DNA of 64,000 bases from an uncultured Hyphomicrobiaceae bacterium (GCA_964407075.1 CAYOUE010000001.1:1478-65477); one strand, 5' to 3'; positions 33,128 to 39,754 are shown, counted from the stretch's first letter. Translations and numbers: made by a program. The notes: generated by a model from the letters alone, not told the origin.

Positions 33128-33859
33128 ATGGTCCGTTCGCTCCTCTATGTCGCGCTTTTCTACGTCAATACGGCTTTGTTCCTTGTCCTCGGCTCGCCGC
33201 TGCTGCTGGGGCCGCGGCGGTGGGCGATGGCGGGTCTGAAATATCATGCGCTGACCTCGATCTGGTGGATGCGCGTGATCGTGGGCACGCGGCTTGAAGT
33301 GCGCGGCAGGGAGAATCTGCCCGAGGGCCCGGCGCTGATCGCCTCCAAGCATCAGTCCGCCTGGGACACGTTCGGCCTCATCCCGCTGACACGCGATCCG
33401 GCCATGGTCATGAAGCAGGAGCTTCTGTCGTTGCCGCTATATGGCTGGTTCTCGCGCAAATTCGAGATGATCCCGGTGCAGCGCGAACTGGGTCCGGCCG
33501 CGCTCCGCCGCATGGCGCTCGAAGCTGCGACGCGCGCCCTGCAAGGGCGGGACATAGTGATCTTCCCCGAAGGCACGCGCCGCCCGCCCGGCGCGCCGCC
33601 CGCCTACAAGCCCGGCGTTGCGCTGCTGTACGACAAGCTGAACCTGCCCTGCGTGCCTGTCGCGCTCAACTCCGGAATGTTCTGGCCGCGCCGCAGCCTG
33701 GTGCGCCGTCCTGGCGTCATCGTCGTCGAGTTTCTCCCGGCCATCCCGCCCGGCCTGCCGCGCAAGACGTTTGCCGCGACGCTTCAGGACGCCATGGAGA
33801 CCGCGACGGCTCGGCTGGTCGCGGAGGCGCAGGAAGCGGGCGTTCCCGATGCGCGATGA
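33128..33859 (+). CDS. plsC: Lysophospholipid (1-acyl-sn-glycerol-3-phosphate) acyltransferase
   Basis: The HQSAWD (HX4D) and FPEGTR acyltransferase motifs are both present. Confidence 0.85.
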   Translation: MVRSLLYVALFYVNTALFLVLGSPLLLGPRRWAMAGLKYHALTSIWWMRVIVGTRLEVRGRENLPEGPALIASKHQSAWDTFGLIPLTRDPAMVMKQELLSLPLYGWFSRKFEMIPVQRELGPAALRRMALEAATRALQGRDIVIFPEGTRRPPGAPPAYKPGVALLYDKLNLPCVPVALNSGMFWPRRSLVRRPGVIVVEFLPAIPPGLPRKTFAATLQDAMETATARLVAEAQEAGVPDAR

Positions 33860-33972
33860 CCCGCTGCTCGTCCATTGAAAAAGCTGTAGATAGACGTGCC
33901 GCGCCATGCCTCGCTGCTTGCGCTTCGCTGCGAACAAAAAAAGGGTAAGACAAGCAAGTCAGGGAGCGGCCG

Positions 33973-34413
33973 ATGATTACATGGCTTATGGGGGCGTGGC
34001 TCGTCTATCACATCATAGCGGCGCTGCATTTCTACGGAAACGACGCCGCGACTCACGCCACATTCGAAGCGGCTCTTCATCAGGAACTCGCCGTGCTCGA
34101 CATCGGCGCGATGATCGGCGCGGGCGGACCGGCCTTCATCGTGACTTACGGCGCGATCATAACTTTCGCAATCCTCATCGCGCTTTACGCCGAGATGACG
34201 CGGATCGTCCGCTATGGCCTCGACCGTAATTTCAGCAAGAGCCAATACGACCTTTACGGCTCTATCCTGCTGCTTGTCGTCGCCAGCGTGGAGATGTTTT
34301 TCATCCCATGGGCGTGGACATCCGTGTTCGTCATACTGTTCTTCGCCAGCATCATGGACGTTCTGATTCATGTCCGGTATCTGCATTATTTCGTGCGGCC
34401 GGGACGGGCGTAG
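33973..34413 (+). CDS. Small integral membrane protein, function unknown
   Basis: About four hydrophobic helices. No motif recognised. Confidence 0.55.
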   Translation: MITWLMGAWLVYHIIAALHFYGNDAATHATFEAALHQELAVLDIGAMIGAGGPAFIVTYGAIITFAILIALYAEMTRIVRYGLDRNFSKSQYDLYGSILLLVVASVEMFFIPWAWTSVFVILFFASIMDVLIHVRYLHYFVRPGRA

Positions 34414-34790
34414 TCGCGTCTTTTTTCATCAGGCGCGTCATCTGCGATCCCCGCAAAGGTGGGAATTTTGCATTATGCACAGGCGCAGGGCTGGGATCGG
34501 CCGCGCTGCTCGGTCCGCCACTCTCAAAACTGATGCAAATCAACCACAAATTTTAATCAAGCTTATGTACGCCCTGAAGTTGAGTTGACCGGGATTTCGC
34601 GCATTGGTAGCAGATTGATGAAAGACACGTTAACATGCGAGTCGGATAATTTTTCATAATTCGATTTAATTTTAACGAACCTGTTACCGGGTTGTTAAAC
34701 GTGACGATGTTTGAAAGGAACTGGTCAAAGCAATGAATTTCGTTTGAATCAGTCTGGATTTTTTGCCGTTCATATTTTCAAGGATTTGCA
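34414..34790 (+). promoter_or_regulatory. Long (377-bp) intergenic leader upstream of csgF, with its distal half strongly AT-rich
   Basis: The compositional drop relative to flanking genes is seen directly, for example in 34560-34790. No specific promoter boxes are assigned. Confidence 0.35.
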
Positions 34791-35198
34791 ATGATGAAAT
34801 TCATTTGCCTTGCGGCGGCGATCATGGCCGCCAATATTTCGCCGGCGTTCGCCGATCTGGTCTACCAGCCGGTGAGCCCGACCTTCGGCGGCAATACTTT
34901 GAACTCGAATCATTTGCAATATCTCGCTACGTCGCAAAAGCAGTTTGACGCGCCGAGTGAAGAGAAGCGCGCCTCCGAGCAGTTCCTCGACATGCTGGAG
35001 GCGCGCCTGTACTCCGCGCTCGCCTCTGAGGTCACGAACGCGATCTTCGGCGAGGACGCCCTGCCGAGCGGCACGATCGCCTTCTCCGACCAGCAGGTGA
35101 CATTCGTCAATACCGGTACCGAAATCCAGCTCGTCATTACGGATTTCACGACCGGGCAAGTGACGAACATCGTGATCCCAACGCTTCAGACCAACTGA
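34791..35198 (+). CDS. csgF: Curli assembly/transport component CsgF
   Basis: After the signal peptide, DLVYQPVSPTFGGNTLNSNHL parallels E. coli CsgF [21 protein letters not shown]. C-terminal ITDFTTGQVTNIVIP parallels VTDRKTGQTSTIQVS. Confidence 0.85.
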   Translation: MMKFICLAAAIMAANISPAFADLVYQPVSPTFGGNTLNSNHLQYLATSQKQFDAPSEEKRASEQFLDMLEARLYSALASEVTNAIFGEDALPSGTIAFSDQQVTFVNTGTEIQLVITDFTTGQVTNIVIPTLQTN

Positions 35199-35255
35199 GC
35201 CAGGCCTGACGGGTCTTTTCGGGAACGTCCGGAAGAAACCGGAGAGAACACAGCC

Positions 35256-36302
35256 ATGCGGCGCGTGCTGGAATCTTTTTGCCTCAATCAACCAGATGGA
35301 CTCATGCGGTCTGCCTTGAGCACCATAAAAGCCGGATTTTCCGCCGTCCTGGCAGCCCTCATTCTGACCGGATGCGCGGAGATGGCTGAGCGCCAGCTCG
35401 ATCCCGGATTGCTGCCGCCGGTCGTGAATCCGGTTACCGAAACCAATATGAGCCTGCGGGAGCTTCCGCCGCCGTCGAGCCCGATCGTCGCAGCCGTCTA
35501 CGACTACGCCGACCAGACCGGACAATTCAAGCCGACCGACGGAACGCAAACACTCTCGCGCGCCGTTACCCAGGGTGCGACTTCGGTGCTCATCAAGGCG
35601 CTGCAGGATGTCGGCGACGGTAGCTGGTTCACCGTCGTCGAACGCGAGAAAGTCGCGAACCTTTTAAAGGAACGCCAGATCATCACGCAGATGCGGATGA
35701 CCTATCTCGGCGAGCAGCAGATCAATCCGGAGGCTCTTCCGCCCCTGCTCTTCGCCGCGATCATCTTCGAGGGCGGCATCATCGGCTTCGACAGCAACAC
35801 CCAGACCGGCGGGATCGGCGCAGGGCTGCTCGGGATCAGCGCGGACGCGAAATACCGTCTCGATACGATCACCGTCTATCTGCGCGCCGTCAGCACCAAG
35901 ACGGGGCAGGTGCTCGCCTCCGTAACGACGCATAAAACCATCGCCTCGGTCGGCGTCAGCGGCGGCGCGTTCAAATTCGTCTCCTTCGACAAGATTCTGG
36001 AGGCGGAGGCCGGCATCACCAAGAACGAGCCGGACCAGCTCGCCGTGCAGCAGGCTATCGAGAAAGCCGTGCACGAAATGGTGGTCGAGGGCGCCGAGCG
36101 GAACATCTGGTCCTTCGCCGACAGCCGCGCGCAGGAGGAGTTGATAAGGCGGAAAAAGGCGGCCAGCGACCGGTCGGCCGGGCGCGCGGTGGAGCGCGAA
36201 CCAATGCAGGACGGATCGCCGGCCGCATTTGCGTCGTCCGGCCCTACGGAGCCGGGCTGGGCCGGCGTGATGATGTCGATGAAGGAAAGCCAAGGCAAAT
36301 GA
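35256..36302 (+). CDS. csgG: Curli secretion channel lipoprotein CsgG, with an approximately 55-aa C-terminal extension
   Basis: Lipobox LTGC. VYDYADQTGQFKP, WFTVVEREKVANLLKERQI, GGIIGFDSNTQTGGIGAG and ITKNEP align along E. coli CsgG. An alternative start lies at 35304. Confidence 0.92.
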   Translation: MRRVLESFCLNQPDGLMRSALSTIKAGFSAVLAALILTGCAEMAERQLDPGLLPPVVNPVTETNMSLRELPPPSSPIVAAVYDYADQTGQFKPTDGTQTLSRAVTQGATSVLIKALQDVGDGSWFTVVEREKVANLLKERQIITQMRMTYLGEQQINPEALPPLLFAAIIFEGGIIGFDSNTQTGGIGAGLLGISADAKYRLDTITVYLRAVSTKTGQVLASVTTHKTIASVGVSGGAFKFVSFDKILEAEAGITKNEPDQLAVQQAIEKAVHEMVVEGAERNIWSFADSRAQEELIRRKKAASDRSAGRAVEREPMQDGSPAAFASSGPTEPGWAGVMMSMKESQGK

Positions 36303-36528
36303 GGGATGTCGCGTTTTTCAGCGCCCGCAGAATGCCGCCAATTTGCAGAGCGCAGGAGGCCGCATCGCCGGGCTGCTCCTGGATCAGCGAGGATTTCCTG
36401 CCTTACCGCAGGGAAAGCCGGCGGGCATGTCCGATCACAAGCGTGACAGGCCGCGCCGCAACAAGAGGGCGTTTTAACCCTCAATAACAGGCGGACTGGA
36501 TATCGGTCCGCCACAAACGGAGAAGACC

Positions 36529-37218
36529 ATGAAGAAATTGTCCCTTATTGCATTTTTGATCGCCGGCATGGGCGCTTCGCAGGCGTTCGCGGTCGACGAC
36601 AACTATTCGAAAATCGATCAGATCACGTCGACCAATGCGACGGCGACGGTTACGCAGACTGGCGTCAACAAAAATACGAACTGGTCCTCGATCCGCCAGG
36701 ACACCGTCAATCAGGCGACGGCGACCGTCACGCAGGTCCAGTCTGTCTTCAATTCGGGCAAGGAAAACAAATCCGACATCCAGCAGAGCGGAAGCTGGAT
36801 CGAGGCGACCGTCACACAGGATGGCGCAGGCAACAATAACGATTCCAAGATCAAGCAGGACGGTCAGGGCGTTAACGGAAACGCCAACAACCTGTCGACG
36901 ATCTCGATCGACCAGACAGGTTTGGGCAATGAGAACTTCTCTAACGTCCTGAACCAGAAGGGCGCCGGCCTCGAAATCGAAGTGACCCAGACGGGCATCG
37001 GCAACGACAACACCTCCACGATCAAGCAGGAGGCCAACCGCTCGTCGGTCAAGGTCGAGCAGCGCGGCGTCGGCAACGACAACACCTCGACAGTGAACCA
37101 GTTTGCCGACGACTCTTCGGTCGACGTGCAGCAGGGCATGGGAACAGTTGGGCTCGTCCATACCTCGGTCGTGTTCCAGAGCGGGTCGCACAATCATGCG
37201 ACGGTAATCCAGAAGTAA
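36529..37218 (+). CDS. Curlin-repeat protein (CsgA/CsgB family), about 9 repeats, Asn/Thr/Gln-rich
   Basis: Signal peptide, followed by repeated S-x5-Q-x-G-x-x-N-x-(A/S)-x-(V/I)-x-Q units (for example SKIKQDGQGVNGNANNLSTISIDQTG and NTSTIKQEANRSSVKVEQRGVGNDNTSTVNQ). Confidence 0.88.
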   Translation: MKKLSLIAFLIAGMGASQAFAVDDNYSKIDQITSTNATATVTQTGVNKNTNWSSIRQDTVNQATATVTQVQSVFNSGKENKSDIQQSGSWIEATVTQDGAGNNNDSKIKQDGQGVNGNANNLSTISIDQTGLGNENFSNVLNQKGAGLEIEVTQTGIGNDNTSTIKQEANRSSVKVEQRGVGNDNTSTVNQFADDSSVDVQQGMGTVGLVHTSVVFQSGSHNHATVIQK

Positions 37219-37231
37219 TCGAACGCATTCC

Positions 37232-37254
37232 GGGGCAGGCGGCCTGCCTGCCCC
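37232..37254 (+). other. GC-rich intercistronic stem-loop between the two curlin genes
   Basis: ggggcaggc-ggcct-gcctgcccc (9-bp perfect stem). No U-run follows it. Confidence 0.5.
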
Positions 37255-37275
37255 GCACCATCAAAGGCAGGCAAC

Positions 37276-37923
37276 ATGTTCTCTTATGCATCCACCAGAT
37301 TTTTTCCGGCCGCCATCGGCGCTCTGATCTGCATTTCCGCTCTTGCGCCCGCGCGGGCCGAGAGCAACCTCGCCTACATCGAGCAGATCGGCTCCGGTCA
37401 CGCCGTGTCGGTCAGCCAGAACACGGGAAGCGGCGCAGCCAATGACGTGCTTGTCGGACAGAGCGGGGATGGCCAAGCCGCATTGATCGAACAGGACGGC
37501 TCGGCGCTGGAGAATACAGCGTCGGTCTTTCAGTCCGGGTCGGGAAACACGGCCTCGATCGTGCAGGGCGGCGCAGGCGGAACCAACGCTGGCGTGATCC
37601 TTCAGAGCGGCATCTCGAACGAAGCCAGGATCCTGCAGGACGCATTGCAGTCCGCCGGAAGCTCCAATTTCGCATCCATTTCCCAGACCGGGAACGCCAA
37701 CACAGCCGAAATCGGACAGTCCGGAGGCGGTCACAAAGCTGAAATCGAACAGGACGGAAACGGCAATTCAGGCCGAATCAGCCAGTCCGGAACCGCCCAG
37801 GAAGCAATTCTTAAACAGTTCGGGGATAATCATACTTATGAAATCCACCAGTCCGGCCCCGCTGGCGGCATCAGTGTCGAACAGTCCGGTCCCGGCGGCC
37901 ACGTGACGGTGACGACGTTCTGA
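37276..37923 (+). CDS. Curlin-repeat protein (CsgA/CsgB family), about 8 repeats, Gly/Ser/Gln-rich
   Basis: Signal peptide, followed by units such as AYIEQIGSGHAVSVSQ, ALIEQDGSALENTASVFQSGSGNTASIVQ and ASISQTGNANTAEIGQSGGGHKAEIEQDGNGNSGRISQSG. Confidence 0.88.
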   Translation: MFSYASTRFFPAAIGALICISALAPARAESNLAYIEQIGSGHAVSVSQNTGSGAANDVLVGQSGDGQAALIEQDGSALENTASVFQSGSGNTASIVQGGAGGTNAGVILQSGISNEARILQDALQSAGSSNFASISQTGNANTAEIGQSGGGHKAEIEQDGNGNSGRISQSGTAQEAILKQFGDNHTYEIHQSGPAGGISVEQSGPGGHVTVTTF

Positions 37924-37946
37924 CCAAGCAATGAGAGAGGCGGCGC

Positions 37947-38384
37947 GTGCGCTACAGAGAGGAGTCAACGGCTTTCTGGAGACGGGGACCTGGCGTCCTG
38001 CTGACCCTCCTCGCAGCGCTTTTTCTCCATGGCTATTCAGACGAAGCCGGGGCGGCGCCATGCTCGAAAATCCGCATGATCTCGGCCTGCAAGAACGCTC
38101 CCAGCCTGAGCGGTCTCCGCCAGATCCGTCCAGGCCGACCGGCAAACGCCCGTTCCGTCCTGCAGCAGCTTCATGAAACCGAAAGCCGTTCCGACCCGCC
38201 GCGGGCCGCCTGGCGCGTGAGAACAGGCACTGGCGGCCTTGATCCCGCCCGGCTCTCCTCGCCGCCCGATCCGGCCACGATCGCCGCTCTGAGACAACTG
38301 GGCATCCCGGCGCCAGCCGGGATCCCTCCGGTCGTCATATTGTTCCCGTCCGACTCCGATGACATCGAAGACGGGATTCGCTGA
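37947..38384 (+). CDS. Hypothetical secreted protein immediately downstream of the curlin genes
   Basis: GTG start 24 nt after the curlin stop, preceded by agagagg. Hydrophobic N-terminus (GVLLTLLAALFLHG), a C-x9-C pair and GC3 similar to neighbouring genes by eye. No family recognised. Confidence 0.4.
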   Translation: MRYREESTAFWRRGPGVLLTLLAALFLHGYSDEAGAAPCSKIRMISACKNAPSLSGLRQIRPGRPANARSVLQQLHETESRSDPPRAAWRVRTGTGGLDPARLSSPPDPATIAALRQLGIPAPAGIPPVVILFPSDSDDIEDGIR

Positions 38385-38689
38385 TGCCTCGATCCTGACT
38401 GAGTCAAAAGCCGGAGTTCGGGAAAATTGACGCATGAACAAAGTGCTGATGCGCCAATGCGTGAATCATATGAATTCGTCAGGGTCTGGTCCGTTCTCGC
38501 AGAATCGGAAGCAAGTTCTGTCTGGCTGACTCAAAGCGTATTTACCCCATCCCGGCTCAAGGCCGGGACAGGCAACCGGTTGCTGCCCCGTTTTCGCAAG
38601 GCCAGGCATTTTCGCAATGCGCTCCAGCAATTCGCGCTTTCCGGGGATGGCAATCCAGAACAGAGCCGGGAGATTGAAGTCGCCGCGCT

Positions 38690-39454
38690 TCAGCTTTCGG
38701 CCGAGGGTCCGCTTTGGACATCCGCAAGCACGAAGCGAAGGATCATGTCGCCGACATGCCTTCGCAGCATCGACTGGCCCTGCCCGGTGAAAAGCTCATT
38801 GCCGAAGATGTGCGAAAAGGTCGGCCGGTTAGAGACGTTGAAGTAACACATCGCCGAAATGTGCCAGTGAAGCTCGACCGCCGACAGGCCGCTGCGGAAA
38901 ATTCCGCTCTCGCAACCTCGCCGGTAGATGTCCTCAAGATGCTGGATGACGGTGCTGTTCCGCCAGGGCATGTTCGCGGACTGCGCCATGTTCCGGCCTT
39001 CGTGGATGTTCTCGATCATCACGAGCCGGATGAAGTACTTGTTCGCTCGATGGTGATCGAAGGTGAATTCAGCCAGCTTCCGCAGAGCATCCACGGGGGA
39101 GACTTTGGCGAGATCCAGCTTGTCCTCGGCGCGCCGCATTCGCTCATAGGCATATTCAAGAACCGCTCTGTACAGCCCTTCCTTGTCGCCGAAGTAATAG
39201 TAGATCATGCGCTTCGACGTTTCGGTGCGGGCGGCGATCTCGTCGACGCGGGCTCCGGAAAAACCTCTCTCCGCGAAGACCGCCAGAGCGACCTCAAGAA
39301 TATTCGCCTTAACGCGATCCGGATCCTGCTTCCAGCCTCTCCGCGCGGAGTCGTCTCCTGAATTGCCGGCCGCCGTTTCGCTCAGAGCTTCGTCTCCCAT
39401 TCCCTGATCCGGCATCCTGCGCAAGGGTTTACACCCCAAAGGGACTTTGGACAT
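38690..39454 (-). CDS. TetR/AcrR-family transcriptional regulator
   Basis: HTH segment ILEVALAVFAERGFSGARVDEIAARTETSKRMIYYYFGDKEGLY. The start is either 39454 or 39415. Confidence 0.88.
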   Translation of the reverse strand: MSKVPLGCKPLRRMPDQGMGDEALSETAAGNSGDDSARRGWKQDPDRVKANILEVALAVFAERGFSGARVDEIAARTETSKRMIYYYFGDKEGLYRAVLEYAYERMRRAEDKLDLAKVSPVDALRKLAEFTFDHHRANKYFIRLVMIENIHEGRNMAQSANMPWRNSTVIQHLEDIYRRGCESGIFRSGLSAVELHWHISAMCYFNVSNRPTFSHIFGNELFTGQGQSMLRRHVGDMILRFVLADVQSGPSAES

Positions 39455-39562
39455 CGGAAGTCTTAACCGTCTGATACATTATATAGACATAATTAACTAA
39501 TCAGTACAATATGAATTCCCATCAGATCGTATCAGCGGCCTTTCCTGATCGGGTCGCAGCGC

Positions 39563-39754
39563 TGGGTGTTCGACACCGTCTACACGCCCGTCGAGACCGC
39601 GTTTCTGGGCGACGCCCGGGCACGCAGCGTCGAAATCTTGAGCGGATACGAGCTTTTCCTCCACTAACGAGTGGACGCGTTCCGCATATTTACTGGCTAC
39701 TCCAAGAACATTCCTGAACTCAGACAGATGTTAAAAAACTTGGATGAGGAATGA
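39563..39754 (+). pseudogene. Remnant of the C-terminus of a shikimate/quinate dehydrogenase (AroE-like) gene with an in-frame stop
   Basis: The frame reads WVFDTVYTPVETAFLGDARARSVEILSGYELFLH*RVDAFRIFTGYSKNIPELRQMLKNL. This matches the conserved AroE C-terminal pattern (V(Y/F)D.VY.P..T.FL..A...G....G.EML..Q...AF..(W/F)TG). TAA at 39665-39667 replaces the expected Gln. No N-terminal part is present. Confidence 0.6.

Follow-up and report, generated by a model that had tools for sequence, protein, structure and literature searches.

Curli genes outside the Gammaproteobacteria are generally unified in one minimal operon (Taylor 2016, PMC4838910). In Alphaproteobacteria, curli systems have been described that lack csgC, csgD and csgE, and many of these bacteria carry csgH beside csgA/B (Dueholm 2012, PMC3521004). 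Up to six csgA/B homologues per genome and repeat numbers of up to 22 have been recorded (PMC3521004), and curlin and csgH genes without a CsgFG channel were noted for half of the alphaproteobacterial genera (Dueholm 2012, PMC3521004). CsgH is a CsgC-like amyloid inhibitor (Taylor 2016, PMC4838910), and CsgC acts by electrostatics on oppositely charged curlins (PMC4838910). Here we analyze a curli locus located at positions 34414 to 38384 of a 64,000-nucleotide stretch of DNA, hereafter the window, from an uncultured Hyphomicrobiaceae bacterium (GCA_964407075.1, CAYOUE010000001.1:1478-65477), which a preliminary description had presented as a minimal csgF-csgG-curlin-curlin locus. Sequence comparisons indicate that it is very probably a unified alphaproteobacterial-type curli (type VIII) secretion operon in which a fifth gene, here called orfX, is a probable lineage-specific accessory gene.

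Gene content of the curli locus

Listing of the open reading frames (ORFs) between 30 and 43 kb revealed five consecutive frames on the plus strand at 34791-38384 (Table 1). The first four, encoding CsgF, CsgG and two curlins (curlin 1 and curlin 2, in this order), each exceed the curated Pfam cut-off of their own family (25.8 bits for PF10614, 20.8 for PF03783 and 20.7 for PF07012), and the fifth has no Pfam match. NCBIfam agrees with Pfam, with sub-threshold matches to enterobacterial equivalogs. The gene order and common orientation given in the preliminary description are thus confirmed, as are the match of both repeat proteins to the curlin repeat model, the 377-bp leader that is AT-rich in part, and the alignability of CsgF and CsgG to their E. 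coli counterparts (E 4e-5 for CsgF and 9e-52 for CsgG against solved structures). Likewise, no csgE, csgC or csgD is recognizable in the locus, and no GerE gene adjoins it. The closest homologues of the FtsX protein (65-81% identity) belong to uncultured Hyphomicrobiaceae and Alphaproteobacteria, Rhodomicrobium sp. and Rhodomicrobiaceae metagenome-assembled genomes (MAGs), in keeping with the alphaproteobacterial label that the locus had received; the window's family is Rhodomicrobiaceae-like.

Two figures of that description need adjustment. The C-terminal tail of CsgG, said to be about 55 aa longer than in E. coli, does comprise 56 residues past the aligned core, yet the net excess is nearer 40 aa, the E. 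coli protein having 18. Both curlins do have more repeats than the five of E. coli CsgA, and the 8-9 proposed for each is slightly high: counted by eye, each contains ~15-16 strand motifs of the form x-x-x-Q-x-G-x-x-N, equivalent to ~7.5-8 full repeats of 22-24 aa, and autocorrelation gives weak peaks at periods 11, 22 and 24. The term "minimal" must be abandoned, since the conserved gene orfX, which had gone undescribed, lies inside the span, whose end at 38384 is the orfX stop. Nor are the five differences from the enterobacterial paradigm peculiar to this locus, all being known features of the lineage (PMC3521004, PMC4838910). Curli operons that lack csgE, csgC and csgD have been known for Alphaproteobacteria since 2012 and carry little weight alone; what is new here is the conserved, unannotated orfX, together with an arrangement of curlins of opposite charge in two modules.

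The missing genes were also sought outside the locus, by six-frame searches of the bacterium's own assembly (3.39 Mb in 323 contigs, 94% complete). We detected a single CsgG, and no match at E <= 1 to either CsgE (PF10627) or CsgC (PF10610). No CsgD-like regulator lies beside the operon; the genome contains five frames with a GerE domain, a domain that alone cannot decide CsgD orthology, and the nearest is ~10 kb downstream (~48.4 kb) on the opposite strand. In a related MAG (L017:4546-5223, minus strand; handles in G, C and L designate genomes, contigs and loci), a LuxR/GerE-type gene is divergent from csgF, in a CsgD-like position.

CsgG-like proteins also occur in holdfast-anchor (Hfa) systems, in which the CsgG-like HfaB exports the curlin-like HfaA. 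The CsgG of the window does match the HfaB model weakly (40.4 bits), and its relatives are budding or prosthecate Rhodomicrobium-like bacteria, as an Hfa-like rather than a curli identity of the locus would lead one to expect. The HfaB score is nevertheless far below both the cut-off of 300 and the 185 bits obtained with the NCBIfam CsgG model, a bona fide CsgF with its plug motif is present, and the Curlin_rpt, CsgA and CsgB models each recognize both subunits, with no Hfa subunit model among the matches at E <= 0.1. On the NCBIfam scores we rejected the holdfast-anchor identity, which we regard as extremely improbable.

Table 1. Positions of the features of the curli locus in the window
Feature	Coordinates	Strand	Evidence
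Leader, probable promoter region	34414..34790	+	GC content, alignment with relatives
csgF, 135 aa	34791..35198	+	PF10614, 99.7 bits (cut-off 25.8)
csgG, 348 aa from first ATG	35256..36302	+	PF03783, 190 bits (cut-off 20.8)
Curlin 1, 229 aa	36529..37218	+	PF07012, 57 bits (cut-off 20.7)
Intercistronic hairpin, 10 bp	37231..37255	+	RNA fold
Curlin 2, 215 aa	37276..37923	+	PF07012, 106.3 bits (cut-off 20.7), 5 stretches
orfX, 145 aa, GTG start	37947..38384	+	Conserved synteny, profile search

orfX, its distribution and its possible role

The GTG start codon of orfX is located 24 nt past the stop of curlin 2, behind a GAGAGG Shine-Dalgarno sequence, and its G+C content at third codon positions (0.705) equals that of the neighboring curlin gene. 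In the closest related locus, L014, a 143-aa ORF occupies the same position (136 aa from the start codon were aligned) and has the C-terminal motif in common. A simple regular expression of this motif matched only L014 in the first related loci, and a profile search was needed. Searching the proteins of 40 relatives recovered orfX homologues in genomes of the same genus and the same family, six of which adjoin a curlin 2 orthologue on its 3′ side and in its orientation; two weak matches, in G008 and G017, with no csg gene nearby, look spurious. Homologues directly 3′ of curlin 2 were found in at least 14 related loci. We then ran an eight-sequence profile against 1.84 billion representative proteins and obtained 114 clusters at E <= 1e-3, of which 42 reached E <= 1e-10. 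Almost all are 125-195 aa long, and those sampled are unnamed or annotated as "hypothetical protein". With a 58-sequence profile, orfX was detected in 18 of the 75 genomes of the window's family, this genome included, and in 6 of its 11 genera. Searches of 297 other genomes of the order and of 400 further ones of the class yielded no match; since they scored 10-55 first-look candidates in each genome, these negatives are soft. Within the searches as scoped, orfX occurs only in relatives labeled Rhodomicrobium, Rhodomicrobiaceae or Hyphomicrobiaceae.

The position of the gene is strictly kept. Whenever a contig contains both csgF and orfX, as at 12 loci from 11 genomes (G001, G003, G005 with two loci, G006, G007, G009, G012, G013, G016, G019 and G022), the latter is found 3-3.6 kb 3′ of the former and in the same orientation. 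In the CsgF-positive genomes without detected orfX (G002, G018 and G024), the csg locus is cut by a contig end. Conversely, a single genome, G004 (79% complete), has orfX without detectable csgF, and there orfX adjoins a curlin gene on a 2.5-kb contig. Gene maps built from hidden Markov model and BLAST searches display the order csgF-csgG-curlin-curlin-orfX in L030-L032, L034, L036-L039 and L016. Variants include L033, with a single curlin detected, L035 (G188:C1:2257.6-2259.7 kb, from a family member whose genome is complete), in which two tandem orfX paralogues and then csgH follow the curlins, and L017, in which a weak, 76-residue orfX-like frame precedes a frame that by eye is CsgH-like. 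Together, these sequence data indicate that orfX is a real gene and the conserved fifth member of the operon. Because it strictly follows curlin 2 across six genera and is restricted to csgF genomes, G004 excepted, it would work with the CsgFG-curlin module; synteny and composition suggest that it is probably a lineage-specific curli accessory factor.

One could instead regard orfX as a lineage-specific small envelope protein that happens to be encoded by the last gene of the operon and is unrelated to curli. Such a reading accommodates the lack of homology to any csg gene and the confinement of orfX to one family, curli elsewhere working without it. It fits poorly with the conservation of position and strand in all assessable genomes of six genera even though identity drops to ~20-30%, with the 24-nt gap and a Shine-Dalgarno sequence of its own, and with the fact that in G004, the one orfX genome without detectable csgF, the gene is still adjacent to a curlin. 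We consider it distinctly unlikely.

By its sequence, orfX encodes a putative secreted protein. All members begin with an n-h-c signal peptide ending at an AxA-like site, and often have one or two pairs of Cys residues (Cys-x9-Cys in the window). An invariant Gln in [IV]-x-Q-[IL]-[SP]-P is followed by a variable linker rich in Arg and Lys, and the C-terminal part (window residues ~99-134) conforms to the consensus L-[AV]-[DE]-A-L-[IL]-x-[PA]-P-x-x-x-T-x-x-[ILV]-L-x-E-x-G-I-P-[AV]-I-x-[GD]-V-P-P-I-[VA]-I-L-x-P, in which motif frequencies reveal P127 to be invariant and P128, P121, G119, L115 and L103 to be nearly so. Once the first 30 residues are removed, the isoelectric point (pI) exceeds 9 in 51 of 58 members. 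AlphaFold2, supplied with the 58-sequence alignment, predicted no globular fold and a mostly disordered chain (predicted template modeling score, pTM, 0.34); residues 101-130 alone are confident (predicted local distance difference test score, pLDDT, 87-89), with a pair of short helices and then an extended stretch. Database searches shed no further light: eight members scanned against Pfam at E <= 1 and the window's own orfX against NCBIfam at E <= 0.1 gave no match, and the best hit of the profile among the sequences of the PDB was an unrelated protein (E 0.058).

Based on these features, we tentatively propose, as a possibility that on balance remains doubtful, that orfX represents a new curli biogenesis family confined to Rhodomicrobiaceae-like Alphaproteobacteria. 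Its product would be a disordered, basic periplasmic protein whose C-terminal helix and proline-bracketed strand (GIPxIxGVPPIVIL) bind the CsgG vestibule or nascent acidic curlins and supply a CsgE/CsgC-like capping or anti-aggregation function, as a natural "beta-breaker" peptide chaperone. Our preferred reading is that the orfX product, as a lineage-specific handling factor in the periplasm or at the channel, would hold the acidic curlins unpolymerized or dock them at CsgG, a job overlapping those of E. coli CsgE and CsgC. This holding or docking role is favored by the signal peptide, the Cys pairs capable of forming disulfides, the lack of CsgE and a charge opposite to that of the acidic curlins. 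The orfX product is a concrete, conserved candidate for how CsgE-less systems gate CsgG and keep their subunits soluble, and a short proline-bracketed hydrophobic motif controlling amyloid growth would be of interest to the design of amyloid inhibitors.

CsgA, CsgB and CsgF are themselves exported through CsgG, and the main rival to a periplasmic role is that the orfX product takes the same route to act outside the cell as a fiber-end cap, a length regulator or a basic adaptor. The mostly disordered prediction recalls known CsgG clients, the protein is basic whereas the curlins of the operon are acidic, its conserved part is a short strand-like motif between invariant prolines, and its gene is directly 3′ of the conserved curlin. 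On the other hand, it contains neither a curlin repeat nor a segment like a known CsgG-targeting sequence, and the Cys pairs of many members suggest periplasmic disulfide loops that would hinder passage through a channel of ~1 nm. Export through CsgG appears unlikely to us; in this reading, the VPPIVIL strand would pair with the open edge of a curlin beta-solenoid and the basic tail would bind acidic fibers or polysaccharide.

Several observations weigh against our interpretation of the locus. The role is inferred throughout, orfX having no csg homology and a pTM of 0.34; in particular, we detected no similarity to the CsgE, CsgC and CsgH models (PF10627, PF10610 and NF041112). With a net charge of ~+3, the orfX protein of the window is less basic than the majority. 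Directly after orfX comes csgH in G005:C143, G009 and G012 (according to their coordinates) and in G188; since csgH follows orfX in the same operon in some genomes, orfX is not simply a substitute for CsgH. There are also CsgE-less curli operons without orfX, in G033 (another family) and in L018 (Competibacteraceae), and therefore orfX is not generally required for CsgE-less secretion. The negative genome searches that delimit its distribution are, as mentioned above, soft. As for the channel, the constriction residues Y51, N55 and F56 of E. coli CsgG have T, T and L as their aligned counterparts, within a loop that is one residue longer; the three residues are a detail of E. coli CsgG rather than a feature defining the family. 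Finally, in an assembly that is 94% complete and in 323 contigs, a second CsgG or a CsgE could lie on unassembled DNA.

The secretion channel, the curlins and their expression

Residues 31-292 of CsgG align to the E. coli CsgG structures. Its lipobox, LTGC, corresponds to residues 37-40, and the true start of csgG is likely the ATG at 35304, which precedes the lipobox Cys by 23 residues and gives a normal lipoprotein signal peptide of that length. By homology, this lipoprotein would form the outer-membrane channel. CsgF, which aligns to the E. coli CsgF chains of 6L7A and 6SI7, has a signal peptide followed by an N-terminal SPTFGGN, the counterpart of the E. coli NPNFGGN plug; the motif [YF]xP[VI][SN]P[ST]FGG is kept in 13 related loci. 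This plug segment would sit in the CsgG barrel and, by analogy, CsgF would present the nucleator at the surface.

The lipobox and the tail of CsgG, which is of low complexity, were compared across 15 homologues, and tail length had no apparent link with the presence of orfX among them. Within the window's family, tail length varies between 26 and over 150 residues, the sequence being rich in A, P, S and T and again of low complexity. Among the CsgG of the window (tail at 36130-36302) and those of L030, L031, L032 and L039, several terminate in the common motif W-A-T-x-V-x-x-V-x-E-R-F-x-H, which reads GWAGVMMSMKES in the window; this motif could be a docking peptide. A Candidatus Competibacteraceae MAG (L018), which is gammaproteobacterial, has the genes csgF-csgG-curlin-curlin with a CsgG 57% identical to that of the window and nearer to it than E. 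coli CsgG, a similarity that hints at horizontal transfer of this type of operon between classes.

The two curlins of the operon differ in composition and conservation. Curlin 1 is rich in Asn, Thr and Ser, has a signal peptide, a mature pI of ~4.7 and ~8 repeats, and is poorly conserved among relatives, with weak cross-matches (E 1e-7 to 1e-13); its NCBIfam scores, 46 bits for CsgA and 37 for CsgB, are both far below cut-off. Curlin 2, which is rich in Gly, Ser and Ala and likewise has a signal peptide, has a mature pI of ~4.4 and ~7.5 repeats. Of the two, it is the one that relatives conserve, with 42-50% identity (tblastn, E 1e-45 to 1e-51), and it scores 76.7 bits for CsgB and 52 for CsgA, both below cut-off. 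We tentatively consider curlin 2 a CsgB-like nucleator and curlin 1 the bulk subunit, because the former is conserved at 42-50%, the latter being barely alignable, and has the better CsgB score. These acidic curlins of 7-8 repeats would be exported unfolded and polymerize outside the cell into beta-solenoid amyloid fibers. Between the two cistrons, a G+C-rich hairpin of the GGGGCAGGCG...CGCCTGCCCC-like type has no U tract. Folding of 37215-37280 gave a minimum free energy of -23.6 kcal/mol with a z-score of -1.07 relative to shuffled sequences, so the structure is stable but unexceptional for its composition. It could determine how much of each curlin is made relative to the other.

In the leader, GC content drops to 0.40-0.44 around 34500-34950, compared with ~0.6 in the flanks, and AT enrichment upstream of csgF was seen at each of the 13 loci examined. 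Alignment with G003, G007 and G013 disclosed a conserved block, TGATGCAAATCAACCACA, at 34531-34548, with the structure TGATGCA-N3-CAACCACA, and, further downstream, a -35-like TTGACC (34585-34590) separated by a 17-nt spacer from a -10-like TAGCAG (34608-34613). TGATGCA, CAACCACA and TTGACC are invariant in this alignment, and the gene upstream differs in these relatives. We regard TTGACC-N17-TAGCAG as a candidate promoter and TGATGCA-N3-CAACCACA as a candidate operator. Transcription probably starts at the former, which would leave a 5′ untranslated region of ~175 nt. A generic scan for promoters and terminators returned counts no higher than in shuffled sequences, and its sigma-70 component missed the TTGACC-N17-TAGCAG site. 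A riboswitch or other known RNA in the leader was rejected after a search of Rfam at E <= 5 over 33800-39600, which produced one chance-level match elsewhere.

Neighboring genes were considered as operon members or regulators and rejected: neither the frame for a 146-aa membrane protein upstream (33973-34413) nor the TetR gene downstream (38690-39454, minus strand) has a conserved adjacency in relatives. The plus-strand ORF at 38427-38846 (139 codons) was likewise discarded. Neither a family match nor a homologue in related loci was found for it, its third-position G+C content is 0.63, and it runs antisense over the 3′ end of the TetR gene; it is probably not a gene.

CsgH and the second curlin module

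The preliminary description was to be abandoned if csgE, csgC or csgH homologues turned up elsewhere in the locus. This outcome is half realized: a csgH homologue exists, in the genome though not in the locus, and neither CsgE nor CsgC was found. CsgH (NF041112) is encoded on contig C145, outside the window (G000:C145:3781-4047; 105.6 bits for a cut-off of 35), and matches the CsgH nuclear magnetic resonance structure 2N59 (E 1e-8). The genome is thus not chaperone-less, since it encodes this CsgC-like chaperone away from the operon. The csgH gene is part of a second module (C145:3151-4699; L001:871-2419; L020) that encodes on one strand CsgH (138 aa) between curlins of 144 aa and 135 aa, in this order, with a gene for an SMR-type small membrane protein coming next. 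This brings the genome to four curlins in two modules. The curlins of C145 are basic (pI 10.3 and 11.1), and the mature curlins of the window are acidic (pI 4.7 and 4.4).

In G003, a genome of the same genus (99% complete, 9 contigs), the curlin-csgH-curlin triplet is conserved (E 1e-56 to 1e-80), and csgF (C2:283.6 kb) and csgH (C2:206 kb) are 77 kb apart on one contig. Because G003 has the same split on a single contig, the separation of csgFG from csgH is not an accident of assembly. G008, G014, G020 and G031 (97-100% complete, same family or order) have CsgH without detectable CsgF. The reverse, CsgF without CsgH, was seen in G018 and G024, weaker cases whose csg contigs are truncated. The distributions of the two modules are partly independent, and the curlin-csgH-curlin module may work without the CsgFG channel. 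In the present genome, the C145 module probably shares the single CsgG, in which case all four curlins would use that channel. With acidic curlins accompanying csgFG-orfX, basic ones accompanying csgH and apparently one channel, this bacterium would provide a natural system to study chaperone-client pairing and the co-assembly of curlins.

Compared with the E. coli csgBAC/csgDEFG system, the locus retains a CsgG fold region alignable over ~260 residues (CsgG, 4UV3; CsgG-CsgF, 6L7A and 6SI7), the PxFGGN plug motif of CsgF and subunits made of repeats rich in Q, N and G. It differs in having a single operon instead of two divergent ones, no CsgE cap, CsgC or CsgD, a constriction formed by T, T and L in place of Y51, N55 and F56, an extra, disordered C-terminal tail on CsgG, and curlins of 7-8 repeats instead of the five of CsgA. 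The resemblance extends further to the unified alphaproteobacterial operons (csgA/B-csgH-csgF-csgG), which likewise encode CsgF, CsgG and multiple curlins on one strand, lack csgC, csgD and csgE, exceed E. coli CsgA in repeat number and have CsgH beside curlin genes. What sets the present genome apart from those operons is that csgH lies outside the csgFG operon, on another contig and in a module of its own with a curlin gene on either side, that csgFG are accompanied by a fifth gene not described before, and that the curlins of the two modules are of opposite charge (pI 4.4-4.7 versus 10.3-11.1). As for orfX, it departs from CsgE, CsgC and CsgH, which are folded domains, in being predicted as disordered save for its 30-residue C-terminal motif and in sharing no sequence similarity with them, and it co-occurs with CsgH in some operons. 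Like all three, however, it is a small protein with a signal peptide encoded within curli operons, and it is usually basic beside acidic curlins, reminiscent of the electrostatic action of CsgC on curlins of opposite charge.

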